From Gammaproteobacteria bacterium (GTDB lineage Bacteria > Pseudomonadota > Gammaproteobacteria > Steroidobacterales > Foliamicaceae): a stretch of 64,000 nt of DNA. The stretch covers positions 5,046-69,045 of the forward strand of contig WTGP01000046.1 in the NCBI GenBank assembly GCA_011523505.1, read 5' to 3'. Numbering within the stretch: position 1 is the first letter of the stretch; every line of letters starts with the position of its first letter. Below, piece by piece: positions 32,216-64,000 of this stretch. The position numbers and the translations under genes are program-made. Below the pieces are notes generated by a model. That model did not search any database and was not told the DNA's origin. It saw only the letters and a program-made list of their open reading frames with translations.

Positions 32216-32239
32216 GGAATTCTCCGAGCAGGACTTGCA

Positions 32240-36078: not shown

Positions 36079-36150
36079 TGAATTGCTCCCCGGTGAGTGT
36101 TCTCACCCCATAGTGGATAATCTGATTCGACGTTATTAAGGTACTCATTA

Positions 36151-38783: not shown

Positions 38784-38799
38784 ACAAGAGGTAAAGCTT

Positions 38800-46182: not shown

Positions 46183-46206
46183 AGGCGGAAAGCCCCCGGT
46201 TATTCG

Positions 46207-48561: not shown

Positions 48562-48653
48562 GGCGGCCTCCTTCGAATCTCCCATCCCGCGTTCTCCAGT
48601 ATTGCACGATTTCCACGAAATGACGCTGGATTTGGGATCAATGTTTGCCAAAA

Positions 48654-48669
48654 ATTCCATTTTTGGAAT
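48654..48669. promoter_or_regulatory. Box 2 of the palindrome family (ATTCCATTTTTGGAAT; 7-bp arms AATTCCA/TGGAATT at 48653-48670)
   Basis: Read directly. It lies in the 159-bp gap between A2 (stop 48721) and T3 (start 48561), 93 nt upstream of the T3 ATG. Confidence 0.65.
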
Positions 48670-48720
48670 TACCGGCCGAATCCCAATACGCCCTAAGGCG
48701 ACTGCCTCTTCGCCCATACC

Positions 48721-49803: not shown

Positions 49804-49807
49804 GGCA

Positions 49808-50770
49808 TTATTCCAGTGAATCGAGAAACTTCTCAAGATCGGCGGTAAACAGATCCGGATCCTCCCACATGGGAAAGTGCCCGAACTGAGGATAGCTGAT
49901 GACCGTCAGCGGCGCTTGACTGAATCTTTCGATAGTAGCCTCAAGGGACTGATATATAACGGTATCCTGTTCACACCATTGCAAGAGCACCGGTACCGTT
50001 ACGTTCTCCGCGAGCGCCCCGACATCCATGGTGCGGAACAATTCGACATTGGATGCGATGTATTCTCTCTGGCGCTGCGCGGCGCCCGGCAGATTGTTGG
50101 CGTCGTAGATCATGTCGATCATCTCGTCGGGAGGCGCGAAACCCGGCGGCGTGGTGTCCTCCAGGACCAGGCGCCACCAGTACTTCGAGCGGTAATCCGG
50201 CAGGAACCGGTTGTGAAACCAGCCCAGGGCCCGGATGCGCCAATCGACCTTGCGGGTCTGGCTCGGCCGCTCGAGCGGCAGGACCGACATCGCCATGGCC
50301 CGCACGCGGCCGGGGTAGCGCGCGTAATAGTCGAGCGCCACGTTGACTCCATTCGAGGTTGCGAGGATCGTAAAGGGCTCCAGGTCCAGGTGCTCCACCA
50401 GCCCGGCCACGATGTCGGCCGCCCGCGCCGTCGTCAGGATCCCCCTGGGGTCGGGCTCCGTGAAGCCGTAGGGAGGCCAGTCCAGCCGGACGACCCGAAA
50501 GCGGCCCTTCAGCCGGTCCGCTATCGGGCTCCATTCGTGCATATTCAGAATGCTGCCGTGGAGCATCAGGACGACCGGCCCGCGGCCTTCGATTCGCACA
50601 TGGACATTGACGCCATCGATATTCACAAATGTTGACGGAGGCGCCGCCCAGCGCGCCTTGACGGTCTCGTAATCGGTGTCCCACCAGCCGATCCGCATGG
50701 ATCCCACGAGCGCGACCAACACGGCTGCGACCACGACAACAACGGAGATTGTTCGCTTGAACAGGCTCAT
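49808..50770 (-). CDS. Membrane-anchored alpha/beta hydrolase (H2)
   Basis: N-terminal TM ISVVVVVAAVLVALV. GRGPVVLMLHGS, variant elbow ILATSNG (AxSxG), C-terminal GHFPMWEDP. ATGA overlap with the upstream M24 gene. Confidence 0.85.
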   Translation of the reverse strand: MSLFKRTISVVVVVAAVLVALVGSMRIGWWDTDYETVKARWAAPPSTFVNIDGVNVHVRIEGRGPVVLMLHGSILNMHEWSPIADRLKGRFRVVRLDWPPYGFTEPDPRGILTTARAADIVAGLVEHLDLEPFTILATSNGVNVALDYYARYPGRVRAMAMSVLPLERPSQTRKVDWRIRALGWFHNRFLPDYRSKYWWRLVLEDTTPPGFAPPDEMIDMIYDANNLPGAAQRQREYIASNVELFRTMDVGALAENVTVPVLLQWCEQDTVIYQSLEATIERFSQAPLTVISYPQFGHFPMWEDPDLFTADLEKFLDSLE

Positions 50771-52011
50771 ACCGTGATCACCGGTTCGCCGATGTCATGC
50801 AGCGGCTCCGCTCCCTCTGCCGTAATCAGCATCAGGTCCTCGATGTGCGCGGAACCGCCGACGCCCGTGTCCATGACCGGGCAATCGACGCTGAGGATCA
50901 TGTTTTCACGCAATGTCAGGTCCAGCTTTCCGAAGAAGCCCCCGGCATCGCGGCCGGGCTCGTCCGTGTGCATCAGCCCTACGCTGTGCGGGCCGATTCC
51001 GACGGCGACGTTGAAACCCCCCTTGCGTACCGCATCCTGCCCGAGGGCGGCAATGTCGCTGTAGCGCATTCCCGGACGCAGTCGTTCACGGATTGACTGC
51101 CATGCATGCGAGACGGCCTGCGCCGCCCTCCGCGCAGCGGGTACCGGCTCGCCGACGAACACGGTGCGCGCGTAGTCGCCGTGGTAGTGGTGAGAATGGC
51201 TGACTCCGTCGATGAAGAATGCCTGTCCGTCCGAGATCACGCCGTCCGACAATTCGGAGGATACCCGGTCGACGTTCAGAAAGAGGGCGCGATTGCCGAG
51301 CCGGGCTGCCTCGACCTCGAACAAATGCCGCAGTTCGGAATGGCTCGCCCCCGCGCGCACAGCCTGGCCGACCGCGTTGACGGCGCCGACATTGGCGATC
51401 GCGGCGCGCCGCATCAACCGGACTTCCAGCGGAGACTTGATCAGTCGAATCCACCTGAGGATGTTATCGCCCGGCACGATCTCGCCAGGATGGCCGTGGC
51501 GCTCGCAGACCGCAGCCGTGACGACGTGATCGCAGGCGATACGGCCCTGCCAGAGTCCCATCTCCTTCATCGCACGTACGAGGGCCGCTCCGGCGTCGGC
51601 GCTTGTGCCGCGCGCTGCCGTAGCCGCATCGAGCGCCTGGCGCCGCCGCCGTTCGACAGGCGACAGCGGCGCCTGTTTGCGGTCCGGGAATTCGGCCCCC
51701 AGCATGTCCGGCGGCAGCAGAGCTTCACTTTCGCTGTCGTCGTCGGCCTCCTGATACAGGTAGACCTGAACGTCGCTCGCGAAACCACCGTCCACGTAGG
51801 TGTAATAGTAGATAAAACGGGAGGCCACGAGGCCCGGTTTCTGGCGCGCGTCCCGCGATAACAGGGCAAAAGTGGTCGGCGGTTGCCCCATGCGCGTCTT
51901 GCCCAGTTGGGGCCAGTACCCCAGCGCGTGGTACACGTTCACCGGTTCCCCGAGCACGAGGCCCTGGAGGTCGAATTCGTCCATGACCTCGAAGGCGCGT
52001 TCCAGATTCAT
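50767..52011 (-). CDS. M24-family hydrolase (creatinase / Xaa-Pro dipeptidase / ectoine-hydrolase-like)
   Basis: The track ORF extends to 52401. I prefer the ATG at 52011 (MNLERAFEVMDEFDLQGLVLGEP, a creatinase_N-like start). C-terminal pita-bread motifs: FIDGVSHSHHYHGDYARTV, GPHSVGLMHTDEP, ILSVDCPV, SAHIEDLMLIT. The start is uncertain. Confidence 0.7.
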   Translation of the reverse strand: MNLERAFEVMDEFDLQGLVLGEPVNVYHALGYWPQLGKTRMGQPPTTFALLSRDARQKPGLVASRFIYYYTYVDGGFASDVQVYLYQEADDDSESEALLPPDMLGAEFPDRKQAPLSPVERRRRQALDAATAARGTSADAGAALVRAMKEMGLWQGRIACDHVVTAAVCERHGHPGEIVPGDNILRWIRLIKSPLEVRLMRRAAIANVGAVNAVGQAVRAGASHSELRHLFEVEAARLGNRALFLNVDRVSSELSDGVISDGQAFFIDGVSHSHHYHGDYARTVFVGEPVPAARRAAQAVSHAWQSIRERLRPGMRYSDIAALGQDAVRKGGFNVAVGIGPHSVGLMHTDEPGRDAGGFFGKLDLTLRENMILSVDCPVMDTGVGGSAHIEDLMLITAEGAEPLHDIGEPVITV

Positions 52012-52155
52012 AGGCCCCTGCTCGCGGAGCAGGCGAGTGAGCTCCGCGTCCTTGCTGCGGAGATCCTTCCGTAAGGCTGCCTCTGATCCAGTCACTGTTT
52101 CCCGCCTGCCGCACGCCCCTGGCATATTATGACGACGCTCCGGAGCGGAGACCAC

Positions 52156-53022
52156 GTGAACGACATTGAACGCCAGTTTGTCGCACTGCGCGAGGGACAG
52201 TTGCATCTGCGTCGCCTTGAGGGGCAGGCCGAGGGCGCAAATCCGGCCGTGCCGGCCGTTTTGCTGCTTCACCCTTCTCCGGCATCGTCGTGGTTCATGC
52301 AGGGCCTGATGGTCGAACTGCGTAAGGCCGGCTGCAACGCAACGCTTATCGCACCCGACACGCTCGGTAATGGCGACTCGGCGCCACCCGGCATCGATCA
52401 CCCCGACATCGCCTACTTCGCCGACAGCATGTGCCGCATGATCGACGAACTTGCGCTCGAACGCGTGGACCTGTACGGCTCACACACCGGTGCGCGGATC
52501 GCCTGTGAGTTCGCCGCGGCCTGCCCGGATCGCGTTCGACGGGTCGTGCTCGACGGCATCATCGAGTATGACGACGACATGCGCAACGCCATCATCGAGA
52601 ACTATGCGCCGCGCGTCGAGCCGGATGAGTTCGGACGGCATTTCGTCTGGGCGTTCAACTTCGTTCGCGACCAGGCGCTGCATTTTCCGTGGTTCATGCG
52701 CGACCCGGAGCACCGCCTCGGTGGGCCCGTGCCTCCCCCGGCGGTCCTCCACCGGGCAGCGCTCGACGTGCTGAAGGCGCTCGACACCTACGCGGACCCG
52801 TACATCGCGGCCTTCGAATACCGGGCCTATGAGCGCCTGCCGCAGATCGAGGCGCCGGTGCTGCTCCTGAAGCCCGACAGCGAATTGCCGGTCCTGCAAG
52901 CCGCTGTCGCTAAGGCGGCGAGTCTGTTGCGCGATGGGCGTATCGCTACGGTACCCGGCGGTGACACGTCCAAAGCCGAGGCTATCGCTGACTTTCTGGC
53001 TGCCGTGCTGCGGAACGAATGA
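52156..53022 (+). CDS. Cytoplasmic alpha/beta-fold protein (H6) with an atypical nucleophile elbow
   Basis: AVLLLHPSPASS..., elbow LYGSHTGARIA, no signal peptide. I prefer the GTG at 52156 (SD ggagcggaga); the track ATG at 52129 is an alternative. Confidence 0.7.
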   Translation: MNDIERQFVALREGQLHLRRLEGQAEGANPAVPAVLLLHPSPASSWFMQGLMVELRKAGCNATLIAPDTLGNGDSAPPGIDHPDIAYFADSMCRMIDELALERVDLYGSHTGARIACEFAAACPDRVRRVVLDGIIEYDDDMRNAIIENYAPRVEPDEFGRHFVWAFNFVRDQALHFPWFMRDPEHRLGGPVPPPAVLHRAALDVLKALDTYADPYIAAFEYRAYERLPQIEAPVLLLKPDSELPVLQAAVAKAASLLRDGRIATVPGGDTSKAEAIADFLAAVLRNE

Positions 53023-53027
53023 GTCAG

Positions 53028-53105
53028 TAATACAAGTACAGGACCGCAGCCCTCGTCACGATAGTTGACGATCAGGCCGGCCGCTTCGAGGCGTGGGCCT
53101 GGCAC
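53028..53105 (-). pseudogene. Relic (~22 codons) of an H1-type alpha/beta-hydrolase gene downstream of TBDR T4
   Basis: The minus-strand frame reads ...RLEAAGLIVNYRDEGCGPVLVLL, against H1 VEVAGVDVNYRDEGSGPVLVLLHGS. The DNA is also visibly similar (gtcaactatcgtgacgagggctgcggtcct vs gtcaattatcgtgacgaaggcagcggcccg). It has no TM/N-terminus and no catalytic part. The position mirrors T3 followed by H1. Confidence 0.5.
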
Positions 53106-53146
53106 CGTCCTCTACTGCAATGCGTCAAAGCAGTCCGATCGCAATC

Positions 53147-55537
53147 TCAGAAGTTGTACACCGCACGCACGCCGAAGGTCCGCTTTCTTGCCAGCGAATA
53201 GCGGATTTCATTGGATCTCGCCACGGTGATCAGATCGTTGCCGATCACGGCGCTCGGCGGGCTGTCTTCCTCGAACAGGTTGGTGCCGAACGCTTCCACC
53301 GTCAGGGCGTCGGAACGAAGGCCCAGCCTCAGGTTGAAGATGTCCTGCGGCGCCACCCAGGCTTCATTGGTGTAATCGACGAAATACTTGCCCAGGTGGG
53401 CGTAATCGACCCGGGCGAACCAGTTGTAGTTGTCCGTGAGCGCGTCTTCGTAATCGGCGGACAGTGTCCACGTCCACTTCGAAGCCGACGGCAACCGGCT
53501 TCCGTCGCAGTTGTTGTCGCCGCGCACGTTCACGCCGTCGCCGCACACGAAATTCTTCACTTCGGAATCCGCCAGACCCAGTGAACCGGACAGCGTCAGG
53601 TTCTCGGTCGGGGCGGCATCGAACTCGAACTCGAAGCCCTGCAGGTCCGCTTCGCCCGTGTTGACGAACACGGACGCCAGGTTGAGCGTCCCGTCCGGAT
53701 TGGTAAACGGAATGGTGATCTGATTCTGGCCATTGCGGTAGGGATCGAAATACACGGCCAGGCGCGTTTGCAGACGGCCGCCCAGCCAGGTCGACTTCAG
53801 GCCTGCCTCGAAGTTGTCCAGCCGTTCCTCCTCGTAGGCAACCGAGGCCCCGAATTGCGCAAACTGGTCGAGGACTACCTGCGGGGAGCCCTGGAGGATT
53901 GCGTTGAAGCCGCCCGGGCGGTAACCGCGAGAGAACAGGACATAGACCATCGAACCCTCCGCGTACTGGTAATCCAGCGATACGCGCGGAGCGAAGCTCG
54001 TGAACTCGGCTTCCAGTGGCTCGCCTCCCGGGGGCTCCGGCGGGTTGCCCGTCGAGTTGATCAACAGTTGCCGCAGCAGTTCGTCCCGCTGGTAGCGGGC
54101 GTCGACGCTCAGCGTCAGCTTCTCGTTGATGTCGTACTGGAGTCCGCCGAATATGGCCGGTGTGGTCGTTTCCGCCTTGGTGATACCGGCTGCAAACAGC
54201 GAGCCGAACACCGAAAGGCCATAAACCGATCCGCCCGGAGAGTAGGAGTCCAGGTAACTGCCGCCCAAAGTCCAGCGCAGCCGCCGGTCCTGCGGCGAGC
54301 TCACGCGCAATTCCTGGCTCCAGTCGCGGAACCGGCTCTGGACGGCAAGCTGCCACCGATTGAACGGCGGCGCGCCGGGAATGACGAAGGACAGCGGGTT
54401 GGGCACGTTGCGCCGGTCCCGGAAGTTCAGATCGATGATCGTCATGTCCTTGTCGGTGTGATAGGCGGTCAGCGCGCTGAACACGTACCCCGACTCGGTG
54501 TCGTAGTCGATGCGCAACGATGCGTTTTCGGCCTCGCGGCCCAGACCCGGCTTGGGCCGGAAACTGGGGTCGAAAATGGTGGCCTGATCCACCGCGTCCA
54601 CCAGGACGGCCCTCGCCTGCTCGTCCAGTGTGTAGTGGCCGGAAATATGACTGGCGGGAAGATCACCCGTATCCGGCAATTCGCCGCAGTAATAACCATG
54701 CATCCGCCCGCCCAGATCGCAATTGAAATCGCCGGTTGAGCCCTTCAAGGCAGCCTGCGCCGGGGGGCCGTCATCGTGTTCCATGTACTGGAAGAACGCC
54801 TTCGCGGACAATCTTTCGTTTGGCCGGAACTGTGCCTGCACAACGAAGGATTCCGTCAGTTCGCCGCCCAGTTCAACGTCGGGATTGGCAAAATTCTTGT
54901 ACTGGCCGCCCTTCTCATCGCGACTGGCGCTGACCCGCACGGCCAGGCCATCCATGATCGGTCCTTCCAGGGCGACCTGTACCAGGGAGGAATCAAAGCT
55001 GGCGGCCGACGCGGTAAGCCGGCCCTGGAACTCTTCGTCGTTAAGGTTCCGCGATACGTAGTTGATGGCGCCGGACAACACCGAACGGCCGAAGTAGGCC
55101 GATTGCGGGCCCTTCAATACCTCCACCCGTTCCATGTCCACCATGGCCGGAGCCTGACCTCCCAGCAGGGGCGAACCGTCAAGAAACACCAGGCCGCCGG
55201 CCTGCTGCTCCCGGTTCAGGGTGCCCAGGTAGAGGCCGCGAAAAACCAGGGAGCTGGCGGAGCGGTCATTGCGCCCGGATCCGCCGCCGACCTGCTTGAC
55301 GTAGTGGAAACCCGGAGTAAAGGACGCGATTTCGCCCATTTCCGTGAGGTTCATTTTTTCCAGCGTTGCCGCCGACATGGCGGAAATCGCCAACGGGGCC
55401 TCCATCAGGTTTTCCTCGACCTTGCGGGCGGTAACCACGATTTCCTCAAGCGCGGGTTCCTGCGCCAAAGATGTTTGCGCAAACGTTGCGAAGACAATGG
55501 CGCCGGCTACGGCGGCCAGCCTGATTGACATTTTCAT
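53147..55537 (-). CDS. TonB-dependent receptor (T4)
   Basis: I prefer the ATG at 55537 (MKMSIRLAAVAGAIVFATFAQTSLAQ) with SD agaggga. Plug EEIVVTARKVEENLMEAPLAISAM, C-terminal ...GVRAVYNF. It is a paralogue of T3. Confidence 0.9.
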   Translation of the reverse strand: MKMSIRLAAVAGAIVFATFAQTSLAQEPALEEIVVTARKVEENLMEAPLAISAMSAATLEKMNLTEMGEIASFTPGFHYVKQVGGGSGRNDRSASSLVFRGLYLGTLNREQQAGGLVFLDGSPLLGGQAPAMVDMERVEVLKGPQSAYFGRSVLSGAINYVSRNLNDEEFQGRLTASAASFDSSLVQVALEGPIMDGLAVRVSASRDEKGGQYKNFANPDVELGGELTESFVVQAQFRPNERLSAKAFFQYMEHDDGPPAQAALKGSTGDFNCDLGGRMHGYYCGELPDTGDLPASHISGHYTLDEQARAVLVDAVDQATIFDPSFRPKPGLGREAENASLRIDYDTESGYVFSALTAYHTDKDMTIIDLNFRDRRNVPNPLSFVIPGAPPFNRWQLAVQSRFRDWSQELRVSSPQDRRLRWTLGGSYLDSYSPGGSVYGLSVFGSLFAAGITKAETTTPAIFGGLQYDINEKLTLSVDARYQRDELLRQLLINSTGNPPEPPGGEPLEAEFTSFAPRVSLDYQYAEGSMVYVLFSRGYRPGGFNAILQGSPQVVLDQFAQFGASVAYEEERLDNFEAGLKSTWLGGRLQTRLAVYFDPYRNGQNQITIPFTNPDGTLNLASVFVNTGEADLQGFEFEFDAAPTENLTLSGSLGLADSEVKNFVCGDGVNVRGDNNCDGSRLPSASKWTWTLSADYEDALTDNYNWFARVDYAHLGKYFVDYTNEAWVAPQDIFNLRLGLRSDALTVEAFGTNLFEEDSPPSAVIGNDLITVARSNEIRYSLARKRTFGVRAVYNF

Positions 55538-55600
55538 CAATGTGTTCCCTCTTCGTGCTTCGATATCCGGCAGTCCGTTGCCGCAGGGTAGGGAGAGGCG

Positions 55601-55614
55601 CTCAAGATCTTGAG
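55601..55614. promoter_or_regulatory. Perfect 14-bp palindrome CTCAAGATCTTGAG in the T4 leader
   Basis: Read directly, 64 nt upstream of the T4 start. Function unknown. Confidence 0.3.
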
Positions 55615-55691
55615 ACCACCTCACACGCGCCGGTCAATATAGACTGTTTTGAGCGTCCTTCGCGGCTGAATGGACGCAAAGTAGGGCAAGT

Positions 55692-55707
55692 ATTCCAATT
55701 TTGGAAT
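55692..55707. promoter_or_regulatory. Box 3 of the palindrome family (ATTCCAATTTTGGAAT)
   Basis: Read directly. It lies in the gap between PhyH and T4, touching the PhyH stop codon, 155 nt upstream of the T4 ATG. Confidence 0.65.
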
Positions 55708-56537
55708 CATCCGGCTGATCCGACATCGGTCCGCCGCCAGATCACGGGGAAGAATTTCCCCGACGGAGGCTCGCCTTCCGGCAGGGCGTCCACCCCGGGA
55801 ATGGAGGCCTTGTAGGGGGCCGGATACCAGCGCACGTCGTCGCCGAAGACCCGCACCGCCAATCCCGTGCGCGGTCTGGCGCTCGAATGGTTCCCCTGTG
55901 AGAAATGAGGTGTGGACGGGTGGAAAACGACCGCGTCGCCCGGTTCCATGTCGAACGAGACGAACCGGAACGGAAAGTCCGGATTGTTCCGTTCCTTCTC
56001 GAAGTCGGGACAGAGCCCGTCGGCCTGATCGGGCGCGAACCCGAAATGCAGGTCGTTTTCCACGCAATGCCGATGAAACCCGGCCACATATTCCACGCGT
56101 CCGTTCTCACGGTCCACCGGGGTCAGCGCGACCCAGATGTTGGGGGCCATCTCGCCCGTGACCGGCCATGCGGTTTCGTCGCAGTGCCAGACCATCACCT
56201 TGGTGGAACCGGGCGGCTTGTGGAACAGGTGATCGTGATAAGCGCGTATGGTGTCCGCTCCGATGACACGACCAACAACCTCCCCGACGGGCGAATTCAG
56301 GACGAAATCCCGGAACACGCCCGGCTGGCGCCACATGAAGCACACGGACGCCATCGATGCGCCGTGCGAGGGTCCGGGAATACCGTAGTTTTCCGGATCC
56401 TTCAACAGCCGGTCCACTTCCTGCCCTAACCGCTCGATCCATTGCCGATCGAACACCTGTCGAAGGTGAACCACGCCATCCCGCCGGTAGGTGTTCCGGT
56501 GTTCCGCCGTAATCGGGTTGAGGGTAGGCTTATTCAT
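55707..56537 (-). CDS. Phytanoyl-CoA dioxygenase (PhyH)-family Fe(II)/2-oxoglutarate oxygenase
   Basis: 276 aa. YRRDGVVHLRQVF, facial triad WHCDE plus distal VVFHPSTPH, and the basic residue RTGLAVR. Confidence 0.8.
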   Translation of the reverse strand: MNKPTLNPITAEHRNTYRRDGVVHLRQVFDRQWIERLGQEVDRLLKDPENYGIPGPSHGASMASVCFMWRQPGVFRDFVLNSPVGEVVGRVIGADTIRAYHDHLFHKPPGSTKVMVWHCDETAWPVTGEMAPNIWVALTPVDRENGRVEYVAGFHRHCVENDLHFGFAPDQADGLCPDFEKERNNPDFPFRFVSFDMEPGDAVVFHPSTPHFSQGNHSSARPRTGLAVRVFGDDVRWYPAPYKASIPGVDALPEGEPPSGKFFPVIWRRTDVGSAG

Positions 56538-57934
56538 TGACTCTCGTCTTTCGCGATAGAGCGTAACCTCTCAAGCTCATGCTCGCTCAAGTTGTAGCGG
56601 GAGATCGCGGCGATGCTGATCGCCTGCAGCACAAGCGGCAGGACCGCTATGCACAGATAGAGTCCGAGCAGCGCGCTTTCGGTCTGCTCGATCCGCTGGC
56701 CTTCCGTCGCTTCAACGTAGCCCATGGCGCCAAGGAATACGCCCAGGAAGGCGACTCCAAGAGCGCCGGAAATTTTCTCCACGAGAACATAGAGCCCCGT
56801 GAATGCTCCCTCGCGCCGCAGTCCTGTTTTCAGGTAGTCGAATTCCAGTGCGTCGGGCAGCATCGCCTGGGTCAGCAGGAAGGTTCCGCCGCCCGCAACG
56901 CCGATCAGGACCGATCTCAGGATGATCAGGCTGACAGGCTCGCCGGGCCCGGCAAACCACCAGGAAAAATGGGCTACGCCATAAAGCGCCGCTGCGATCA
57001 TGTAGCCGTTCCGTTTCCCCATGCGGCGCGCGACGAAAAGCCAGGCGGGCTGGGAAAGGATAAGCGCCACGCTCAGAACGCCCAGGTACAAGCCGAGCAC
57101 GTCGTCGGTAACCTCAAGGACGTGTTTCGTAAAGTAGGCGGTGGTGGAAACGGCGATCGCCAGCACCAAGAAGTACACCAGCTTGGACACCATGAGCCAA
57201 AGGAAGGGGATGTTCCCGAGAGCCGACTTCAGTTGCTCCTTCAGGGGCGGCTGTTGCAGCCGCTGAACGGTCTGGGGGGCGTGGCGAAGCGACCATACGC
57301 ACACCACCACCGCCACGGCTGCGATGCCCGCCAGTACCCAGGCCATCCGGGCGTGACCTGCCCGGGTTGCGCCCCACCAGGCCAGCAGGGCAGGGCCCAG
57401 GCTCAAGCCGATCAACGAGCCGAACGAGGAAAACACGACCCGGAACGACATGAGCTGGGTGCGCTCGTGATAGCTGGGCGTCAATTCCACGGCCATTGCT
57501 ATATAGGGGATATTGAACATCGTGTACGAAGTAGCGAACAACAGCAGAAAGGCCGACAGGTAGATCAGCAGGGGCGTCCCGCTTGTATCGGGAGTTGTGT
57601 AGAGGGCCGCAACGGAGGCGGCGCACAACAGGCCGCCTGTCGCCAACCACGGCAGCCGCCGGCCCCACCGCGTGGAAATACGGTCCGAGAATGCGCCCAT
57701 CAGCGGGTCGCTGATGGCATCCCAGACCTTCGCGCCGGCGAAGATGAACGCCGCAGTGGCCGCGGCAACGCCCAACGAATCGGTCATGAAACGCAGCAAA
57801 AGGACGTTCGACGACAGGTTCAGGATGGTGATGGGCATCGAACCGAGTCCCCATCCGAGCCGTGTTTTCAGCGGGAGCGTAGCTTTGCCCGGTCCCGCTG
57901 CGCCCCCGTCGTCGCCTGTCCTGATTCCCGGCAT
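56534..57934 (-). CDS. GPH-family MFS symporter
   Basis: DAISDPLMGAFSDRISTRWGRRLPWL is the GPH signature. I prefer the ATG at 57934, 17 nt after the cupin stop. ATGA overlap with PhyH. Confidence 0.85.
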   Translation of the reverse strand: MPGIRTGDDGGAAGPGKATLPLKTRLGWGLGSMPITILNLSSNVLLLRFMTDSLGVAAATAAFIFAGAKVWDAISDPLMGAFSDRISTRWGRRLPWLATGGLLCAASVAALYTTPDTSGTPLLIYLSAFLLLFATSYTMFNIPYIAMAVELTPSYHERTQLMSFRVVFSSFGSLIGLSLGPALLAWWGATRAGHARMAWVLAGIAAVAVVVCVWSLRHAPQTVQRLQQPPLKEQLKSALGNIPFLWLMVSKLVYFLVLAIAVSTTAYFTKHVLEVTDDVLGLYLGVLSVALILSQPAWLFVARRMGKRNGYMIAAALYGVAHFSWWFAGPGEPVSLIILRSVLIGVAGGGTFLLTQAMLPDALEFDYLKTGLRREGAFTGLYVLVEKISGALGVAFLGVFLGAMGYVEATEGQRIEQTESALLGLYLCIAVLPLVLQAISIAAISRYNLSEHELERLRSIAKDESQ

Positions 57935-57951
57935 TCCCGTCCGCGCCACAA

Positions 57952-58476
57952 TCAACCGGGCAGCAGCCGATCCAGGATGGATTCGCCCGGCGCCGGACAC
58001 AGGGACTCGTCAAGTTGCACCGACACTCCGAACTGGCCCTCGGGACCCGCGCCCGACCTGTGGCCGCTGCCGACACAATCCTCGGCGAAAAGAACGTCTC
58101 CGTGACCGAACTCGTGACGGCTTCCGTCCCGCAGCTCGACCACGAGAGTTCCGAATATCGGTATCAGGATGTTGGGCTGGTTGGCCACGTGCCAGTCATA
58201 CATGAAACCGGGCGCGATGGATCCCACGGTCACACGGTCAGCGGGATGCCGGATCAGCAGATGAGGAGGCTGCGGACCTGGACCGGTCACCGGCACTTCC
58301 CGTATTTCAGCTACTCCGCCGGCGTTGGCAAACAGGTTGAAGTATCGCTTCACCCACGGCGGCCCGTCTGCGGCCAGTGCCGGTCCCGCACCACCGCCAA
58401 CGCCGGCGAGCGCCAGCGCCGCGCTCGTGCCCGCAGTCGAGACGAAGGCCCTTCTTGTCGAACTCGATTCGCTCAT
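57952..58476 (-). CDS. Tat-exported small cupin-domain protein
   Basis: I prefer the ATG at 58476 with SD ggagaggga. MSESSSTRRAFVSTAGTSAALALAG is a twin-arginine signal. C-terminal GDVLFAEDCVGSGHRS is a cupin-type motif. Confidence 0.7.
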   Translation of the reverse strand: MSESSSTRRAFVSTAGTSAALALAGVGGGAGPALAADGPPWVKRYFNLFANAGGVAEIREVPVTGPGPQPPHLLIRHPADRVTVGSIAPGFMYDWHVANQPNILIPIFGTLVVELRDGSRHEFGHGDVLFAEDCVGSGHRSGAGPEGQFGVSVQLDESLCPAPGESILDRLLPG

Positions 58477-58556
58477 GACTCCCTCTCCGGCATCTACGCG
58501 TCGGATTCTCCCGCCTATGATGTCGCTTGTCCAATCCATCGCAAGAAGCAAATCGC

Positions 58557-59564
58557 ATGAAAAGAACGGTTCTGTTCCTGGCGCTGTCCGCCCTCGCCGT
58601 TGCAATGATCTTCGTCGGAGTTGCGCGAACAGGGCTACTCGAAGCGAACTATGAAGAAGCGCGGGTTCGCTATGGTTCCCCACCCTCGCAGTTCATGGAA
58701 ATCGATGGGACCGAGTTGCACTACAGAGACGAAGGCAAAGGCCGAGCGCTGGTCCTGTTGCACGGCTCCCGAGGCAATCTTCAGCAGTGGGACGGTTGGG
58801 TTGCCGAACTCGGCGCCGAATTTCGCATCATTCGCCTGGACGCCCTCGGGCATGGTTTGTCGGGCCCCGACGGACGGGACGATTACAGCGCCGAACGGGG
58901 GATTTACCTGTTGCGCGAACTGCTGGCGGCGCTGGGGGTAGAACGATTCATCCTGGGAGGAACCTCCAGCGGCGCCAACCAGGCGGTCCGCTACGCCGCG
59001 ATGTATCCGCAGCAGGTGGAAACGCTGCTGCTTTCGACGGTGCCTCTGCGACTGCCGTCCACGTCACGCACCCGCCTGCTCGATCGCCTGACATTCTGGG
59101 TGCATGACGAAGTGCTCGGAACGAAAGGAACGAACCTGTACTGGCGGGCGTTTCTCCGCAGTATCTACGGCGACCCGGACAAAGTCACGAACGAACTCAT
59201 CGAAAGGTACCGGACGCTCAATACGTTGCCCGGCCAGGAACGACGGTTCCGGAAACGTATCGAAGTGTGGTACGACAGCGGGGGGCCGGAACGCGATTAC
59301 GCTACGGCCGGGACGGTGACGGCGCCAACCTTCATTCAATGGGGCGGCTCCGGTCCGGTGCTGCCGGCTGAATTGTTCTGCGAGATTGCAGCCGCGTTCT
59401 CATCGACATCACCCCGGATGATTCAGTATTCAGACCTGGGGCACAAGCTGATCATGGAGGATGCCGTGCGGACAGCCCGGGACGCTCTTGCCTTCGTCAA
59501 AACCGGCGAAGTCGGAGAAGCATGCGAACCGGCGGATGCCGGCCGAGACGCTACGGCGAAGTGA
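58557..59564 (+). CDS. Membrane-anchored/secreted alpha/beta hydrolase (H3)
   Basis: ATG at 58557 (MKRTVLFLALSALAVAMIFVGV). LHYRDEGKGRALVLLHGS, elbow ILGGTSSGA, distal LGHKLIMED. Confidence 0.85.
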   Translation: MKRTVLFLALSALAVAMIFVGVARTGLLEANYEEARVRYGSPPSQFMEIDGTELHYRDEGKGRALVLLHGSRGNLQQWDGWVAELGAEFRIIRLDALGHGLSGPDGRDDYSAERGIYLLRELLAALGVERFILGGTSSGANQAVRYAAMYPQQVETLLLSTVPLRLPSTSRTRLLDRLTFWVHDEVLGTKGTNLYWRAFLRSIYGDPDKVTNELIERYRTLNTLPGQERRFRKRIEVWYDSGGPERDYATAGTVTAPTFIQWGGSGPVLPAELFCEIAAAFSSTSPRMIQYSDLGHKLIMEDAVRTARDALAFVKTGEVGEACEPADAGRDATAK

Positions 59565-61719
59565 CCGCTGTCTCGCTGTCCGCAAGCCAATGCGCTACCG
59601 CGTTGACCTCGTCGGCGTCGAGCCCCATCGCGTGGCCTTGCATGGATCCCAGGGTCAGTTTTTCCACAAGGACAGCCGCATTGAGCCGGGCCAGTTCGTG
59701 GCGGGAGGGCACGTCCGCGCGTTCCTGATCGTGGCACGCGGCGCAGCGCGCTTCGTATAGTTCCGGACCGTTCGTGGTATCGATGCCTGCTGAGCTGCTG
59801 GCATTGGAAGAGGGGCCGGCCCGCCGTCCATGAAGGCGAGATGCCTTCGCTCCCTGGCGTTCCATGGCGGCTCCCAGCCCGAAGGCCTGAATGCGGTCCG
59901 TTCCCACGAAGACCCTGCCGTCGGTAACGAGCGGTTCGTTGTACTTCCCGCTGGGATACAGCTGTCCGGGGGCGCTGCGCCAGAGGAGCTCCAGGGAAAT
60001 GGCATCGAGCGCGTAGAGCAGGGGCCGCGGCGGGTCCTCACCGTAGAGCGAAGCGGAGCGCGGAACGTTCACATCGAACACCCAAACCACGGCATTGTTG
60101 CGATTGAAGCTGGTGACGACCGGCGACGCCGGATTCCGCAGGATGAGATCCGGCTGAATGGCGTCGAGACGAAGATAGGGCGGCTCGTCCGGATTCACGA
60201 CAATCTCAACCCGCGCCAGACCCGGCGGTATGCTTTCGCTCGACTCTTCGGCGGCCTTCGCGGTGCCCGTCAGGTAGACGAGATGGCGACCGTCGGGAGC
60301 ATTCAGGTATGCCGGCGTGGTGCGGCTCTTGGCGAAATCGCCCATGCCGACGCGATCGCTGTAAGGCCCGAAGACGTTCAACGGCCCGCGCGTCCCAAAA
60401 ATCGGCTGTATGTCCGGGGACAGCAAGGAAGTGTCCGCGCCGGCGCCCTTGATGGGGTCCTCGGCGCAGGCTTGCCGCCTGACGAGGCTTCCGGGCATGC
60501 GTTTTCTGTCCAGGAGATAGGCGTTGCCCTGCTTGCTGCCGCCGTGTATGAGCAACTTCGGGTTCGGCGAGTCCTCCGGGGGCAGGTCCACAAGGATCGG
60601 CGTTCCGCTGCCGAGGTCGATGTCCTGGCCCCCGGCCTGACAATAATTGAAGGGGGCGTAGGTGCCCGCCAGACGCAGCCTGCCTCCGGCTCCCGAGGTC
60701 AGGCGCAGTATGGATTGGCTCCAGTTGCCGTCGCTGTCGGGATACACCCCCTGGTTCCCCATTCCTTCCAGCGCGTTGATGAAGCTGCTGCCGGAGGCAA
60801 CGTATAGATCTCCGTCGGAATCCATCGAGGGCCCGCCCGAAGCCCACAGGCCGCCGACGCCTTCATCCGTGCGGGCGGTTATCGAGAAAGCGCCGGCAAC
60901 GCGCCGTTCAAGCGTGTCGACCGACAGCAGCCAGCCGCTGATCGGCTCGCCGCCGAAAGCCACGTAGAGCCACCGCCCATCGGCGCTGAGATTCAGCGCG
61001 CCGCGCTGCAGCATCGCCACCCCGGACGGGAACCGATTGTCGCCGTTTGCATTGATGCCGGGACTGTTGACAGCCTCCGCCGACAGGTCGAGAGGCCAGC
61101 CGTCCACGCTGGCGCCGCTCGCCAGGTCCAGAGCATGGACGTGCCAGGCCCGGGACTCGTCGCAGCCCACGACATAGATTCGGCCGAGCCGCCGGTCGAT
61201 AACCGGAGTGCTGAGGATGCCTCGCGTGCCGTTACCGCAGGGACGGTCGAGCAGGCGTCGCTGCCAAAGAGTTGCGCCCGCCGGCAGACCGCCGGCCGCC
61301 GAAGCATTGATGGCTGCGATGAAGCCTGTGGCGCTGGCCGCGAAAACCACGTCCAGGCTGTCTGTGCGGCCGGCCTCGCCGGTCACGTCGAGGCCGGAGA
61401 CGTACAGCGGCGCCGCGAACAGCCGTGGCGGCGTCGTGCCCGCGTAACCCAGCGGTTCGGACTCCCAGAGAAGCCCGAAGCTACCGGACTTGACGGCGGC
61501 CGGCGTAAGCAAGCCTTCGTTGTCGTACCAGCCGGTCCTTTGCGCTGTCCCGTGATAGGTGAGATTGTCGGAGCTGAGGCGGGCGTTCCCCGCTTTTGCG
61601 GGGCTGTCGGCGCTGATCAGAATGACCAGAAGGCAGCAGTAAAGACTGCCGCGCAGTGTCAAGGAGACGGCGCGAAAGCGTTTCCGATGACGCCGCGTGG
61701 AGCGGCCGTCAGAGAGCAT
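59551..61719 (-). CDS. Secreted PQQ-like/BamB-like beta-propeller protein fused to a C-terminal class I cytochrome c domain
   Basis: ~720 aa. The signal-like N-terminus ends in SLYCCLLVILISADSPAKA. The long body is rich in Gly/Asp/Trp blades (WHVHALDLASGASVDGWPLDL, GRWLYVAFGG, LYALDAISLELLWRS, DGRVFVGT). The last ~90 aa contain a CAACH haem-c motif and a candidate Met ligand (GSMQGHAMG). The start is uncertain: 61719, 61764 or GTG 61668. Confidence 0.8.
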   Translation of the reverse strand: MLSDGRSTRRHRKRFRAVSLTLRGSLYCCLLVILISADSPAKAGNARLSSDNLTYHGTAQRTGWYDNEGLLTPAAVKSGSFGLLWESEPLGYAGTTPPRLFAAPLYVSGLDVTGEAGRTDSLDVVFAASATGFIAAINASAAGGLPAGATLWQRRLLDRPCGNGTRGILSTPVIDRRLGRIYVVGCDESRAWHVHALDLASGASVDGWPLDLSAEAVNSPGINANGDNRFPSGVAMLQRGALNLSADGRWLYVAFGGEPISGWLLSVDTLERRVAGAFSITARTDEGVGGLWASGGPSMDSDGDLYVASGSSFINALEGMGNQGVYPDSDGNWSQSILRLTSGAGGRLRLAGTYAPFNYCQAGGQDIDLGSGTPILVDLPPEDSPNPKLLIHGGSKQGNAYLLDRKRMPGSLVRRQACAEDPIKGAGADTSLLSPDIQPIFGTRGPLNVFGPYSDRVGMGDFAKSRTTPAYLNAPDGRHLVYLTGTAKAAEESSESIPPGLARVEIVVNPDEPPYLRLDAIQPDLILRNPASPVVTSFNRNNAVVWVFDVNVPRSASLYGEDPPRPLLYALDAISLELLWRSAPGQLYPSGKYNEPLVTDGRVFVGTDRIQAFGLGAAMERQGAKASRLHGRRAGPSSNASSSAGIDTTNGPELYEARCAACHDQERADVPSRHELARLNAAVLVEKLTLGSMQGHAMGLDADEVNAVAHWLADSETAVTSP

Positions 61720-62677
61720 CGTCGGGCGTGGCTGCCTCAAGGTATGCGGCGACGATCTTCGCAAACCTTACCGGGGATTCCAGGGGAGGGTAGTGGCCCA
61801 CATCCGGCATGAACACGGTCGAAACCTGCGTATTCTCGAGATAGCCGGCCAGCGTACCGGCGGATGCGGGAATCAGCAGCGCGTCGCGGCCACCCCATAT
61901 CAGGAGCGCCGGCGCGCGCACGCCGGCCATCGCCTTCCTGGCCTTTTCGTGATCGGCTACCAGTCCGATCATTGCGATCGGGTTGGGTTCCTTCACCCGC
62001 CGGTTGAAGTCGTAATACTCGCGCCGCGTCTGCTCTGAAATCCGCCGCGGGTCTCCGGTGTAGAAATCCAGGAACAGGTTGATGAAGTTCTCCGACTCGA
62101 AGCCTGTCTCCTCGAACTCCTCCAGCGCCGCCTTGAATGCGGGCGGATGGTTGACGTGATCGGTCGTGACCGGGTCCGACGGGGAGTTCGACATGATCAG
62201 CCGGTTCACCCGGTCGGGGTAGGTGGCCGCGAGGTACATGCAGGTCGTGCCTCCGCTGGAGACTCCGACGCAGGTCACCTGGTCTACACCCACGTGGTCC
62301 AGCAGCCCCGCGGCCAGGTCCGCCGGTTCCATGCGGGCCACGGCTTCGTCGGACACCGGGCCGGACAGGCCGTTTGGCGGCAGGTCGTAGCGGATCACAC
62401 GATAGCGATCGAGGAATTCCGGCGCTACGCGGTCCCAGGTGCGCAGCGAACTGCGCGAACCGTGGATCATCAGGATGGCCGGGCCTACACCCTGATCCTT
62501 GTAATAGATCTCGACACCGCCGATTTCCGCGATCCGCCCGTCGGAATCGCCATACTTCTGCCGCAGCTCATCCAGCGTGAGCCGCTGATCGGCGAATTCG
62601 TCCGCAAGGCCGGGAATGGGAACCGAAGGCACAAGCAGCACAAACAGCACTACGGCGAGTAACAGGTTTCGTTTCAT
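61709..62677 (-). CDS. Secreted alpha/beta hydrolase (H4)
   Basis: Signal peptide MKRNLLLAVVLFVLLVPSVPIPGLA. IYYKDQGVGPAILMIHGS, elbow CVGVSSGG, GHYPPLESP. Confidence 0.9.
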   Translation of the reverse strand: MKRNLLLAVVLFVLLVPSVPIPGLADEFADQRLTLDELRQKYGDSDGRIAEIGGVEIYYKDQGVGPAILMIHGSRSSLRTWDRVAPEFLDRYRVIRYDLPPNGLSGPVSDEAVARMEPADLAAGLLDHVGVDQVTCVGVSSGGTTCMYLAATYPDRVNRLIMSNSPSDPVTTDHVNHPPAFKAALEEFEETGFESENFINLFLDFYTGDPRRISEQTRREYYDFNRRVKEPNPIAMIGLVADHEKARKAMAGVRAPALLIWGGRDALLIPASAGTLAGYLENTQVSTVFMPDVGHYPPLESPVRFAKIVAAYLEAATPDDAL

Positions 62678-63633
62678 TGCGGTACAGCAGCCTCCATGAA
62701 TGCAGCGACGATCCGGGCAAATCTTAAGGGAGATTCCAGGGGAGGGTAGTGGCCCACGTCCGGCATGAACACGGTTGAAACCAGAGTATTCTCAAGATAA
62801 CCGGCCAGCGTGCCCGCCGCTGCCGGCGGCAACAGCTCATCGCGGACTCCCCAGATCAGGAGCACCGGTGTGCGCACGCTCGCCATTGCCCTCCTGGTTT
62901 TCTCGTGGTCGCGAACGCGTCCGGTCAGCGCCAGCCTGTTCGCCTCCTTCACCCGCCGGTTGAAATCGTGGTATTCGCGCCGTGTCTGCTTCGATATCCG
63001 CCGGGGGTCTCCACTGAAGAAATCCAGGTACAGGTCCATGAAATCCTCCGTTTCGAATCCGGTTTCCTCCAATACCCTGATAGCCTCCTCGAATGGCGGC
63101 GGTTCGTTAAGGTGATCGGTCGTGACCGGGTCGGACGGGGAGTTCGACATGATCAATCGGTTCACCCGGCCCGGGTAGGCAGCCGCAAGGTACATACAGG
63201 CAGTGCCCCCGCTGGACACTCCCACGCAGGTAACCTGGTCAACACCGAGATAATCCAGCAAACCGGCTGCAAAGTTTGCCGGTTCAAGGCGATTTGCGGC
63301 TTCGTCGGAGACCGGGCCGGACAGGCCATTGGGCGGCACATCGTATCGAACCACCCTGTATCGGTCGAGGAGTTCCGGGGCCACGCGGTCCCAGGTGCGC
63401 AGCGTGCTGCGCGAGCCGTGGATCATAAGGATGGCCGGCCCCTTGCCCTGGTCCTTGTAGTACACCTCGACACCGCCGATTTCCGCAAACTGCCCATCCG
63501 GGTCGGCATACTCTTGCCGCAGCGTTTCGAGGGTGAGTCGATCCGCCAGTACATGGTCCGCCAGGGCGGGAGTTGGACATGACGGAACCAGCAATGCAAA
63601 CAGCACTGTGCCCAGGCAGAGGTTGCGGTTCAT
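62674..63633 (-). CDS. Secreted alpha/beta hydrolase (H5), tandem duplicate of H4
   Basis: I prefer the ATG at 63633 (MNRNLCLGTVLFALLVPSCPTPALA). It is colinear with H4 and identical over long runs (GPAILMIHGSRS.LRTWDRVAPE, GVDQVTCVGVSSGGT, RVNRLIMSNSPSDPVTTDH, VSTVFMPDVGHYPPLESP). ATGA overlap with H4. Confidence 0.9.
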   Translation of the reverse strand: MNRNLCLGTVLFALLVPSCPTPALADHVLADRLTLETLRQEYADPDGQFAEIGGVEVYYKDQGKGPAILMIHGSRSTLRTWDRVAPELLDRYRVVRYDVPPNGLSGPVSDEAANRLEPANFAAGLLDYLGVDQVTCVGVSSGGTACMYLAAAYPGRVNRLIMSNSPSDPVTTDHLNEPPPFEEAIRVLEETGFETEDFMDLYLDFFSGDPRRISKQTRREYHDFNRRVKEANRLALTGRVRDHEKTRRAMASVRTPVLLIWGVRDELLPPAAAGTLAGYLENTLVSTVFMPDVGHYPPLESPLRFARIVAAFMEAAVPQ

Positions 63634-63720
63634 TGCGAAGACTGTCTGAATCGACAGATGGATTCTATGCCACAATGGAAATTCAGCGATGGCTCGATCT
63701 TGCCTGGCTCCAACGACACG

Positions 63721-64000
63721 ATGAACGACTTCGCCAATGTGCGGGTTTCGCACTCGGTGCTGCACCCGGACTGGATTGCGGCGGAAGCAGCGCGGCACTA
63801 CCCATTGAACGGCGCCGTGACGGCCTACCTCCTTTACAGAGGCATGAACGACGTTTATTTGATCAAGGACCGCGAAACCCGGTACGCGATGCGGGTCTGG
63901 CGGCGCGGCTGGCGCGATGTCGACGTCGTGAAAGTCGAACTCGACTTCCTGGATTACCTGCGCCGACGAGACTTCCCGGCGTCGACGCCATTGCGCACGC
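63721..64000 (+). CDS. Phosphotransferase-family (APH / homoserine-kinase type II-like) protein, N-terminal part; runs off the window
   Basis: Own translation from the ATG at 63721: MNDFANVRVSHSVLHPDWIAAEAARHYPLNGAVTAYLLYRGMNDVYLIKDRETRYAMRVWRRGWRDVDVVKVELDFLDYLRRRDFPASTPLRT... The G.ND.Y.....R.Y..RV......E..FL..L pattern is typical of this kinase family's N-lobe. It is absent from the ORF track because it has no stop. Confidence 0.6.
   Translation, partial: MNDFANVRVSHSVLHPDWIAAEAARHYPLNGAVTAYLLYRGMNDVYLIKDRETRYAMRVWRRGWRDVDVVKVELDFLDYLRRRDFPASTPLRT

Follow-up and report, generated by a model that had tools for sequence, protein, structure and literature searches.

We examined a gene at positions 59551 to 61719, on the minus strand, of a 64,000-nt stretch of gammaproteobacterial DNA that we call the window; all coordinates are those of the whole stretch. 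The gene encodes a secreted protein in which an eight-bladed β-propeller is followed by a C-terminal class I cytochrome c domain. We propose, with moderate confidence, that the protein acts in the periplasm as a quinohaemoprotein-type dehydrogenase and represents an uncharacterised, deeply divergent branch of the eight-bladed pyrrolo-quinoline quinone (PQQ) dehydrogenase superfamily. This reading is the most economical one, because the cytochrome c is fused in the position that it has in type II alcohol dehydrogenases (ADHs), and because the Asp, the Lys, the Trp, and the acidic set of those enzymes appear to be retained. PQQ is the probable cofactor. It is the likeliest candidate because the predicted pocket keeps the residues common to PQQ dehydrogenases and adds invariant Arg and Lys residues, as a tricarboxylate needs.

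The DNA sequencing runs that contain the window stretch are nearly all sponge metagenomes, and the closest relatives in genome collections are metagenome-assembled genomes (MAGs) of Gammaproteobacteria. The source is a sponge-associated gammaproteobacterium.

Domain organization of the protein

The open frame extends from 59551 to 61764 on the minus strand, and the ATG at 61719 gives a protein of 722 aa. An orthologue from another sponge metagenome (P0001) is 95% identical and also has 722 aa. The parts of the protein are as follows.

59551..61719, minus strand: whole coding sequence of the secreted propeller-cytochrome c protein, 722 aa (open reading frame [ORF] list; orthologue of equal length)
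61591..61719, minus strand: signal peptide, residues 1-43 (basic n-region, hydrophobic LYCCLLVILI, SPAKA followed by G; low predicted local distance difference test [pLDDT] score; single helix at 22-37)
59872..61587, minus strand: eight-bladed β-propeller, residues 45-616 (propeller-only AlphaFold2 [AF2] model and Foldseek)
59785..59871, minus strand: flexible Ala/Ser/Gly-rich linker, residues 617-645 (pLDDT below 50 at 621-642)
59566..59784, minus strand: class I c-type cytochrome domain, residues 646-718 (PF13442 match, profile matches, all-helical in the model)
59731..59745, minus strand: haem-binding motif CAACH, residues 659-663 (conserved CxxCH)
59641..59643, minus strand: Met693, the Met of GSMQGHAMG, candidate sixth haem ligand (falls on the axial Met, invariant in the cytochrome domain of type II ADHs)

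The N terminus looks like a Sec-type signal that would be cleaved between SPAKA and G. A preliminary description, made from the letters alone, had reported propeller-like repeats followed by a C-terminal cytochrome c in a quinohaemoprotein-like layout, with CAACH and a candidate Met ligand in GSMQGHAMG. The AF2 models and the cytochrome matches bear out this layout, and the two motifs fall at residues 659-663 and M693.

Predicted fold of the propeller

We built an AF2 model of the full-length protein from a family alignment of 41 homologues (the close set), and a second model of the propeller only (residues 45-620) from 60 sequences. The full-length model had a pLDDT of 83 and a predicted TM-score (pTM) of 0.83; the propeller-only model had a pLDDT of 92.3 and a pTM of 0.93. 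Sheets were read from the DSSP strings. There are eight four-stranded sheets, followed by the unstructured linker (617-645) and the all-helical C-terminal domain. In the model, an N-terminal strand (81-86) closes blade 8.

We then searched the PDB with both models by using Foldseek. The top match in both cases was the type II quinohaemoprotein ADH 1kv9, at E-values of 7.7e-17 (full length) and 4e-15 (propeller only). With the full-length model, PQQ alcohol or methanol dehydrogenases filled ranks 1 to 19; one of them was 8gy2, a membrane-bound ADH. With the propeller-only model, ranks 1 to 11 were PQQ dehydrogenases, among them PedH, XoxF, and methanol dehydrogenase (MDH), with E-values of 4e-15 to 3e-12, TM-scores of 0.53 to 0.57, and identities of 12 to 14%. 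The next matches, at 1e-10 to 1e-8, were BamB (about 1e-10), YxaL, and tetrathionate hydrolase (about 1e-8). Cytochrome cd1 nitrite reductase matched at about 1e-7 with a TM-score of 0.33 to 0.34. The fold, as modelled, is that of the PQQ-dehydrogenase superbarrel in a distant version. The preliminary description had left the blade number and the nearest structures to be settled by structure prediction; the models give eight blades, with PQQ dehydrogenases as the nearest structures.

Sequence models and the haem domain

In a Pfam scan, the window protein matched PF13442 at residues 648-712 with 24.2 bits, below the curated threshold of 27. The same model matched 38 of the 41 family members. 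Of the 41 aligned homologues, 38 have the CxxCH motif and 37 have M693. When the profile of the 41 homologues was compared with PDB sequences, cytochromes c6, c551, and bc1-c were found at E-values of 1e-4 to 1e-3, and nothing other than cytochromes c matched. From this sequence evidence, the haem domain is real despite its subthreshold Pfam score.

A single-sequence phmmer search of PDB sequences returned nothing relevant. PF07995, the model for six-bladed glucose/sorbosone dehydrogenases, matched neither the window protein nor any of the 41 relatives. The sole NCBIfam hint on the propeller was a stretch of about 40 residues (366-407) that matched TIGR03074, a membrane PQQ-dehydrogenase model, at an E-value of 0.087.

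Residue-level comparison with type II ADHs

As the hhalign reference, we used four full-length type II ADHs taken from plasmid records, one of which is 90% identical to 1kv9 over the region compared. The local alignment with the family had a probability of 90% and an E-value of 1.5e-6, and covered residues 61-706 against 74-692. The global alignment had a probability of 98% and an E-value of 1.6e-12. It kept the register of the local alignment and paired propeller with propeller and cytochrome with cytochrome. With E. coli Gcd as the only reference, the probability was 1.4%, and this alignment was not used. Because this comparison and one with a mixed PQQ profile failed, we relied on the type II ADH profile and on the fold comparison. 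The residues of interest in the propeller are listed below.

61237..61239, minus strand: Cys161 (aligned by hhalign with the first Cys of the ADH vicinal Cys-Cys)
61162-61164, minus strand: Cys186, probable disulfide partner of Cys161
61003..61008, minus strand: Gln238-Arg239, before the inner strand of blade 3 as placed by DSSP; candidate contacts to cofactor carboxylates
60946..60948, minus strand: Glu258 (aligns with the Ca-binding Glu of type II ADH)
60844..60846, minus strand: Trp292 in GGLWASGG, candidate equivalent of the Trp stacking under PQQ (GGTVWDS in ADH)
60616..60624, minus strand: Asp366-Ile-Asp368 (in the alignment, D368 takes the place of the catalytic or metal-binding Asp of ADH, WDF)
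60505..60534, minus strand: KQGNAYLLDR, residues 396-405 (matches KNGFFYVLDR of type II ADH)

The hallmarks of quinohaemoproteins are a disulfide above the cofactor and Asn, Asp, and Glu around the metal (PMC13088180). In the hhalign alignment, D368 fell on the catalytic/metal-binding Asp at low local confidence, and K396 fell on the Lys/Arg that contacts the quinone oxygens of PQQ. The N-terminal QRTGW...LTP...FGLLW fell on QRFSPL...LGLAW of the ADHs. The equivalence of W292 comes from the motif, since hhalign opens a gap there. For the metal set, the low-confidence alignment puts the Glu on E/D258, the Asp on D368, and the Asn on S312, with D366 as an extra. The D366-x-D368 pair could be read as a lanthanide-type motif, although it is D368, not D366, that aligns with the catalytic Asp, in an ambiguous register.

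Most of these positions are conserved well beyond the close set. In a diverse set of 44 representatives that included cytochrome-less members, W292, D368, R239, K592, W546, and Y354 were found in all 44, K396 was found in 43, and Q238, R415, R466, and R609 were each found in 42. Position 366 is Asp in 38 of the 44 and Asn in 5. W292 is also invariant in the 41 close homologues, and position 258 is Glu or Asp in 39 of them. C161 and C186 are invariant in the 41 close homologues and, within the family, only in the cytochrome-bearing clade near the window; where the ADHs have the Cys-Cys ring, they probably pair in an ordinary disulfide. More than 40 polar or aromatic residues are invariant, and they cluster immediately ahead of the inner blade strands. 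When the DSSP strings are read against the sequence, these residues appear to lie where the pocket residues of PQQ enzymes lie.

The preliminary description had not seen the ADH hallmark motifs by eye. The vicinal Cys-Cys is indeed absent. However, KQGNAYLLDR is present, and a relaxed form of the Trp-docking motif found between blades (A-x-D-x-x-T-G-x-x-x-W) matched three times (196, 266, and 570), against six matches in a control ADH.

Secreted hydrolases beside the propeller gene

The propeller gene is flanked by three genes of the alpha/beta-hydrolase fold.

61709..62677, minus strand: secreted alpha/beta-hydrolase H4 with a GVSSGG nucleophile elbow (PF00561, E-value of 1e-22)
62674..63633, minus strand: secreted alpha/beta-hydrolase H5, tandem paralogue of H4, with which it overlaps by 4 nt (Pfam scan and pairwise comparison)
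58557..59564, plus strand: convergent third alpha/beta-hydrolase with an N-terminal signal or anchor, 27% identical to H4 (Pfam scan)

H4 and H5 are 76% identical, and both have signal peptides. The preliminary description had noted that the propeller gene is co-oriented with H5 and H4 and overlaps them by about 11 nt. The overlap is exactly 11 nt: within ATGCTCTCTGA, the propeller gene starts and H4 stops. This overlap suggests that H5, H4, and the propeller gene are co-transcribed, and the operon link is kept in relatives. The third hydrolase and the propeller gene share 14 nt at their 3' ends, an arrangement also found in an orthologous contig (L004). The closest solved relatives of H4 are generic esterases and meta-cleavage hydrolases, which assign no substrate. 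Its best NCBIfam match, a PcaD-type enol-lactonase, was far below the cut-off and was rejected.

The order hydrolase-hydrolase-propeller is kept in three of four relatives at 74 to 81% identity (L018, L019, and L021); in the fourth (L020), the ORF calls gave no upstream hydrolase. The 95%-identical orthologue has one upstream hydrolase. Relatives at 51 to 53% identity have a different, divergent alpha/beta-hydrolase upstream. In L026, L028, and L035, its gene shares 4 nt with the propeller ORF; in L001, it is located 5 nt upstream.

Near the propeller gene are also a GPH-type MFS_2 transporter, a PhyH dioxygenase, TonB-dependent receptors, Amidohydro_2 proteins, and an M24 peptidase. The alpha/beta-hydrolases form a dense set in 45139-63798 (45139-46182, 49808-50770, 52129-53022, 58557-59564, 61709-62677, and 62674-63633), interleaved with two TonB-dependent receptors, Amidohydro_2 proteins, the M24 peptidase, PhyH, and the MFS_2 transporter. 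The three hydrolases that we checked (58557-59564, 61709-62677, and 62674-63633) have signal peptides. By its predicted gene content, 45139-63798 is an esterase-rich catabolic island. A small protein of about 174 aa is encoded at 57952-58476 on the minus strand. It has a twin-arginine signal (STRRAFV), and Pfam gave no match to it even at E<1; an ORF of the same size occupies this place in L004, L018, and L021.

The wider family

A word-indexed search found more than 1,100 relatives. None had an informative name: they were called "hypothetical," "cytochrome c," or "BamB," and one DUF1080 fusion was called a "family 16 glycoside hydrolase." In an exhaustive profile search, with clusters at 50% identity, there were 992 at E-values of 1e-30 or better and 4,557 at 1e-10 or better. 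The catalytic (propeller) domain has no Pfam or NCBIfam model, and a literature search turned up no study of the propeller-cytochrome family. Distant plasmid-borne homologues from Burkholderiaceae and Acidisarcina, at 25 to 32% identity, carry no cytochrome, stand in uninformative contexts, and are labelled "PQQ-binding-like beta-propeller repeat protein" or "pyrrolo-quinoline quinone."

The family has several architectures. The propeller occurs alone, with cytochrome c, with PF06439 and cytochrome c (about 906 aa), behind ThuA and in front of cytochrome c, or with malectin, CBM96, fn3, or Calx-beta. In the members of about 906 aa, PF06439 (3-keto-disaccharide hydrolase, DUF1080) sits between the propeller and the cytochrome. 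PF06439 is named after BT2157, which was shown experimentally to hydrolyse 3-keto-trehalose, and ThuA belongs to the ThuAB route to 3-keto-disaccharides (PMC8121099). The ThuA, 3-keto-disaccharide hydrolase, malectin, and CBM96 fusions point to sugars or glycosides as the probable ancestral substrates.

We scanned species-representative genomes and obtained 80 loci, which come from sponge and other Gammaproteobacteria, Steroidobacteraceae, many Xanthomonadales/Lysobacterales, Sphingomonadales, Burkholderiales, Acidobacteriota, Verrucomicrobiota, and Bacteroidota. The occurrences in the last three phyla are MAGs. Cultured carriers belong to Lysobacter, Pseudoxanthomonas, Rhodanobacter, Stenotrophomonas, Rudaea, Novosphingobium, Massilia, and Phenylobacterium. 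We analysed the neighbourhoods of 78 non-redundant loci with our own ORF calling and two small hidden Markov models. ThuA was in the same ORF in 29 loci, directly upstream in 11, and within four genes in 4; the upstream ThuA was confirmed by Pfam annotation of independent contigs. An alpha/beta-hydrolase of the window type was within four genes in 18 loci, 17 of which had no ThuA. Thus, 43 loci had ThuA only, 17 had the hydrolase only, 17 had neither, and 1 had both, proportions that describe only that part of the family most similar to the query, by which similarity the 78 loci were picked. The clade of the window has neither ThuA nor DUF1080. Four recurrent neighbour clusters from our ORF calling (c2, c3, c8, and c14) look like spurious antisense ORFs of high-GC DNA and were discarded.

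Some loci show fuller arrangements. In L051-L093, from Xanthomonadales/Lysobacterales (for example, in Rudaea, Lysobacter, Pseudoxanthomonas, Rhodanobacter, and Stenotrophomonas sp. JC08), the homologue is a single ThuA-propeller-cytochrome c polypeptide of about 940 to 1000 aa. In L015, from a Sphingomonas sp. MAG, and L017, an unassigned metagenome contig, a conserved operon lies upstream of the homologue, in the order PfkB kinase, 716-aa FGE-sulfatase-domain protein, GH127, carboxylesterase, CoA-transferase III, ThuA, and propeller-cytochrome c. Genes for FGE-sulfatase-domain proteins recur near the gammaproteobacterial homologues L001 and L002, together with a cytochrome b561-type gene (Ni_hydr_CYTB). 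The product of the latter could be the membrane electron acceptor.

Evidence against the proposal and alternative readings

A number of results weigh against our proposal that the protein is a quinohaemoprotein-type dehydrogenase. At the level of curated models, the Pfam and NCBIfam scan of residues 1-640 gave nothing at E<1 except the TIGR03074 stretch, and PF01011, PF13360, and TIGR03075 did not match the window protein. Weak matches among the 41 relatives were limited to PQQ_2 (PF13360) in 9 and PQQ in 2. At the level of alignment, only the cytochrome domain stayed aligned at an hhalign mact of 0.5, where the posterior confidence of the propeller was low, and a heterogeneous profile of 11 PQQ sequences gave only an out-of-register match between blade repeats. 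The low posterior and the out-of-register match mean that the propeller alignment is a guide and not proof. The TM-scores against PQQ dehydrogenases are only about 0.55.

The pocket itself also differs. The vicinal Cys-Cys is not conserved: position 162 holds G, R, A, S, E, T, D, or L. The metal-binding Asn position falls on S312, which is Ser, Lys, or Ala in the family. The equivalents of Glu55 and Arg109 of MDH are replaced by Phe101 and a variable residue, respectively. The genomic evidence adds to these points. We found no pqq genes among the scanned ORFs of the window, and pqqA and pqqD gave only chance-level matches in the window and about 90 related loci. A search of RNA-seq runs found none that holds the propeller gene. 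Finally, some close relatives have no cytochrome: for instance, in L021 (Gammaproteobacteria MAG RHO1_bin_71, P0012), which is 81% identical over the propeller, the ORF ends right after the propeller, and no cytochrome c domain is encoded anywhere in the locus. Because a relative this close encodes none, the haem domain appears to have been lost or gained recently within the clade of the window.

Judged by sequence, the protein is not an ordinary member of the PQQ ADHs, because its identity to them is so low, the curated models fail, and the Cys-Cys ring and the Asn ligand are missing. The preliminary description had called the sequence atypical, which the failure of the curated models to see the propeller confirms; in the profile search that it proposed, neither PQQ nor PQQ_2 matched, and the cytochrome c match was subthreshold. 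It had also contrasted a novel protein with one that aligns end to end with known ADHs. We do find such an alignment with type II ADHs at the level of profile and fold, within the limit set by 12 to 14% identity. Its suggestion of a different cofactor or chemistry keeps the missing Cys-Cys and Asn on its side; it is weakened by the PQQ-type fold, the apparently retained Asp, Lys, and acidic ligand, and the Trp that probably stacks under the cofactor.

Spelled out, that suggestion is that the same fold holds another anionic redox cofactor, or none, and that a different redox reaction feeds the fused haem c. We consider this possible but unlikely. The loss of the ring and of the Asn fits it, as do the failure of every curated PQQ model and the lack of pqq genes seen locally, in the window and in related loci. 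Moreover, six invariant basic residues (R99, R239, R415, R466, K592, and R609) are absent from the ADHs, and eight-bladed propellers that use haem d1 or no cofactor, those of cd1 nitrite reductase and tetrathionate hydrolase, were among the structural matches. However, what appears to survive in the pocket (the Trp floor, the Asp base, the Lys of the next blade, and an acidic metal ligand) is the set common to all PQQ dehydrogenases, and an Arg/Lys-rich pocket suits a tricarboxylate such as PQQ. The membrane glucose dehydrogenase is not known to have a Cys-Cys ring and yet uses PQQ. Non-canonical metal spheres have been reported for other predicted PQQ propellers (bioRxiv 10.64898/2026.07.14.738520).

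A non-redox, carbohydrate-active propeller, either a hydrolase or a lyase acting on glycosides or keto-glycosides, is less probable still. In this scenario, the cytochrome would be an accessory of some lineages. Many members combine the propeller with malectin, CBM96, fn3, or Calx-beta and have no cytochrome, close relatives such as L021 lack it too, and tetrathionate hydrolase is a cofactor-free use of the fold. However, 38 of the 41 aligned relatives do carry the C-terminal cytochrome c, placed as in type II ADHs. The conserved core is identical with or without it, which suggests one chemistry for both, and the covalent fusion to a haem c speaks for electron transfer. A separate cytochrome also serves the type I PQQ ADHs, which have none fused to them. 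Among the top 50 structural matches, there was no propeller of a polysaccharide lyase or a glycoside hydrolase.

Last, a noncatalytic BamB/YfgL- or lectin-like scaffold that tethers a cytochrome c, for which speak PF13360 (PQQ_2/BamB) as the commonest weak Pfam match and the BamB structures among the Foldseek matches, is very improbable, given a propeller of about 570 residues with long insertions versus about 350 in BamB, scores 4 to 5 orders of magnitude better for PQQ dehydrogenases than for BamB, no lipobox, and catabolic operons rather than envelope-biogenesis contexts. The pocketless scaffold that the preliminary description had in mind is also at odds with the dozens of invariant polar residues that precede the inner strands.

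Comparison with known systems

The closest known systems are the type II ADHs, such as ADH IIB of Pseudomonas putida HK5 (1kv9; also 1yiq and 1kb0). They too are secreted, and in them, as in the window protein, a linker joins an eight-bladed propeller to a class I cytochrome c at the C terminus. The profile alignment, whose local confidence is low in the propeller, gives counterparts for the catalytic Asp, for the acidic metal ligand, and for the Lys of K-x-G-x-x-Y-x-L-D-R, as well as for the QR motif near the N terminus and for the axial Met. However, the window protein has a single Cys161 with a distal Cys186, Ser/Lys/Ala in place of the Asn ligand, other basic pocket residues, and long insertions (e.g., residues 405-470). 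The partners also differ, being esterase-like hydrolases, ThuA, or DUF1080 here and aldehyde dehydrogenase in ADH loci. The large subunit of the type III membrane ADH (Gluconobacter AdhA, 8gy2) shares the propeller fold and the C-terminal cytochrome c domain. The type I and lanthanide ADHs and MDHs (PedH 6zcw, XoxF 6fkw/7o6z, and MxaF) share with 8gy2 the likeness in propeller fold, at E-values of 1e-16 to 1e-12. Both groups differ from the window protein at the sequence level as the type II ADHs do.

Other eight-bladed proteins are less similar. BamB/YfgL and YxaL have the PQQ-like fold and differ in size, conserved pocket residues, the fused cytochrome, and the catabolic context found here. 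Cytochrome cd1 nitrite reductase has the reverse order, an N-terminal cytochrome c followed by a haem-d1 propeller, and only its cytochrome part matches by sequence. The soluble glucose/sorbosone dehydrogenase type (PF07995, CAZy AA12-like) has six blades rather than eight.

Two systems resemble the gene neighbourhoods. In the polyvinyl alcohol (PVA) operon of Sphingopyxis/Pseudomonas, PVA dehydrogenase, a periplasmic PQQ-haem c enzyme, is encoded beside a secreted serine hydrolase, the oxidised-PVA hydrolase, and the two act in one pathway. PVA dehydrogenase has its cytochrome domain at the N terminus and is a recognisable member of the PQQ family, and the hydrolase of that operon belongs to a different esterase family. 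The periplasmic routes that start from a glycoside 3-dehydrogenase (LacABC, or the FAD glucoside 3-dehydrogenase that works with cytochrome c; ThuAB; and BT2157) share the partner set of ThuA/PF06439 and cytochrome c, which a cytochrome-linked glycoside dehydrogenase would be expected to have (PMC8121099). However, where the dehydrogenases of these routes are known, they are not propellers but FAD (GMC) or NAD(P) (Gfo/Idh/MocA) enzymes.

Other features of the window

A uronate-polysaccharide utilisation cluster occupies 17985-37984. It contains a PL6-type chondroitinase-B-like lyase (21956-24223), a heparinase II/III or alginate-lyase-like protein (24220-26439), KduI (30263-31105), and a pectate-lyase-fold protein (36209-37984), along with a TonB receptor, a short-chain dehydrogenase/reductase, a LacI regulator, and a second TonB receptor. 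An AT-skew spike of +0.26 at 14001-16000, versus about 0 elsewhere, coincides with a TRAP-transporter DctM gene (14162-15700, minus strand). A DUF1838 protein is encoded at 13234-14064 on the minus strand. DUF1838 is also found at 6097-7008 of L001, a Steroidobacteraceae chromosome, four genes upstream of a family member and beside a Gfo/Idh/MocA oxidoreductase. The plus strand encodes a 1,387-aa Lhr-type large helicase (4756-8919; DEAD, DEAD_assoc, and Lhr winged-helix) and an ABC transporter (38046-41711; an ATPase followed by two paralogous ABC-2 permeases, each with DUF3526).

Proposed mechanism and implications

We suggest the following mechanism for the proposed dehydrogenase. The protein would be exported by Sec, and haem would be attached to CAACH in the periplasm. 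The propeller may bind an organic redox cofactor in the funnel of its top face, most likely PQQ with a Ca2+ or lanthanide ion. From the alignment, the cofactor would lie over Trp292 and be held by the invariant basic residues R239, K396, R415, R466, K592, and R609, and the metal would be held by Glu/Asp258 and Asp366/Asp368. Asp368 may serve as the base that takes a proton from the substrate hydroxyl. The cofactor would accept two electrons and pass them on singly, over the flexible linker, to the haem (His663/Met693), from which a soluble periplasmic acceptor would carry them to the respiratory chain. The gene is probably translationally coupled to those of the two secreted serine alpha/beta-hydrolases. 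In one scenario, an imported compound is de-esterified and the released alcohol or sugar hydroxyl is oxidised; in the other, a hemiacetal is oxidised and the resulting lactone is hydrolysed.

A bolder proposal goes further, and we offer it tentatively, as a possibility more doubtful than the dehydrogenase assignment itself. The family may be an unrecognised class of cytochrome-c-linked carbohydrate dehydrogenases of the "auxiliary activity" type, in which a remodelled PQQ-like pocket oxidises glycoside hydroxyls, for example to 3-keto-glycosides. ThuA or the 3-keto-glycoside hydrolase DUF1080 would be its obligate partner, and this partner would have been swapped for secreted esterases in the sponge-symbiont Gammaproteobacteria to give a new periplasmic "de-esterify and oxidise" module. 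The cofactor would be PQQ with a non-canonical metal sphere (Asp-x-Asp plus Glu/Asp and no Asn), or another.

The finding overturns nothing known; the architecture is that of known quinohaemoproteins, the active site is strongly remodelled, and the partner domains are new. If our reading is true, it shows how far the PQQ pocket can drift, to the point of having no Cys-Cys ring and no Asn ligand, while the fold is kept. The fusions offer a testable role for ThuA and for the many cytochrome-linked DUF1080 proteins, in a periplasmic route that would convert glycosides to keto-glycosides and feed the respiratory chain. Carriers of the ThuA-propeller-cytochrome c protein are cultured, so genetics is feasible, and the large family is a good lead for enzyme discovery. 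For sponge symbionts, the gene marks a probable esterase-rich catabolic island.

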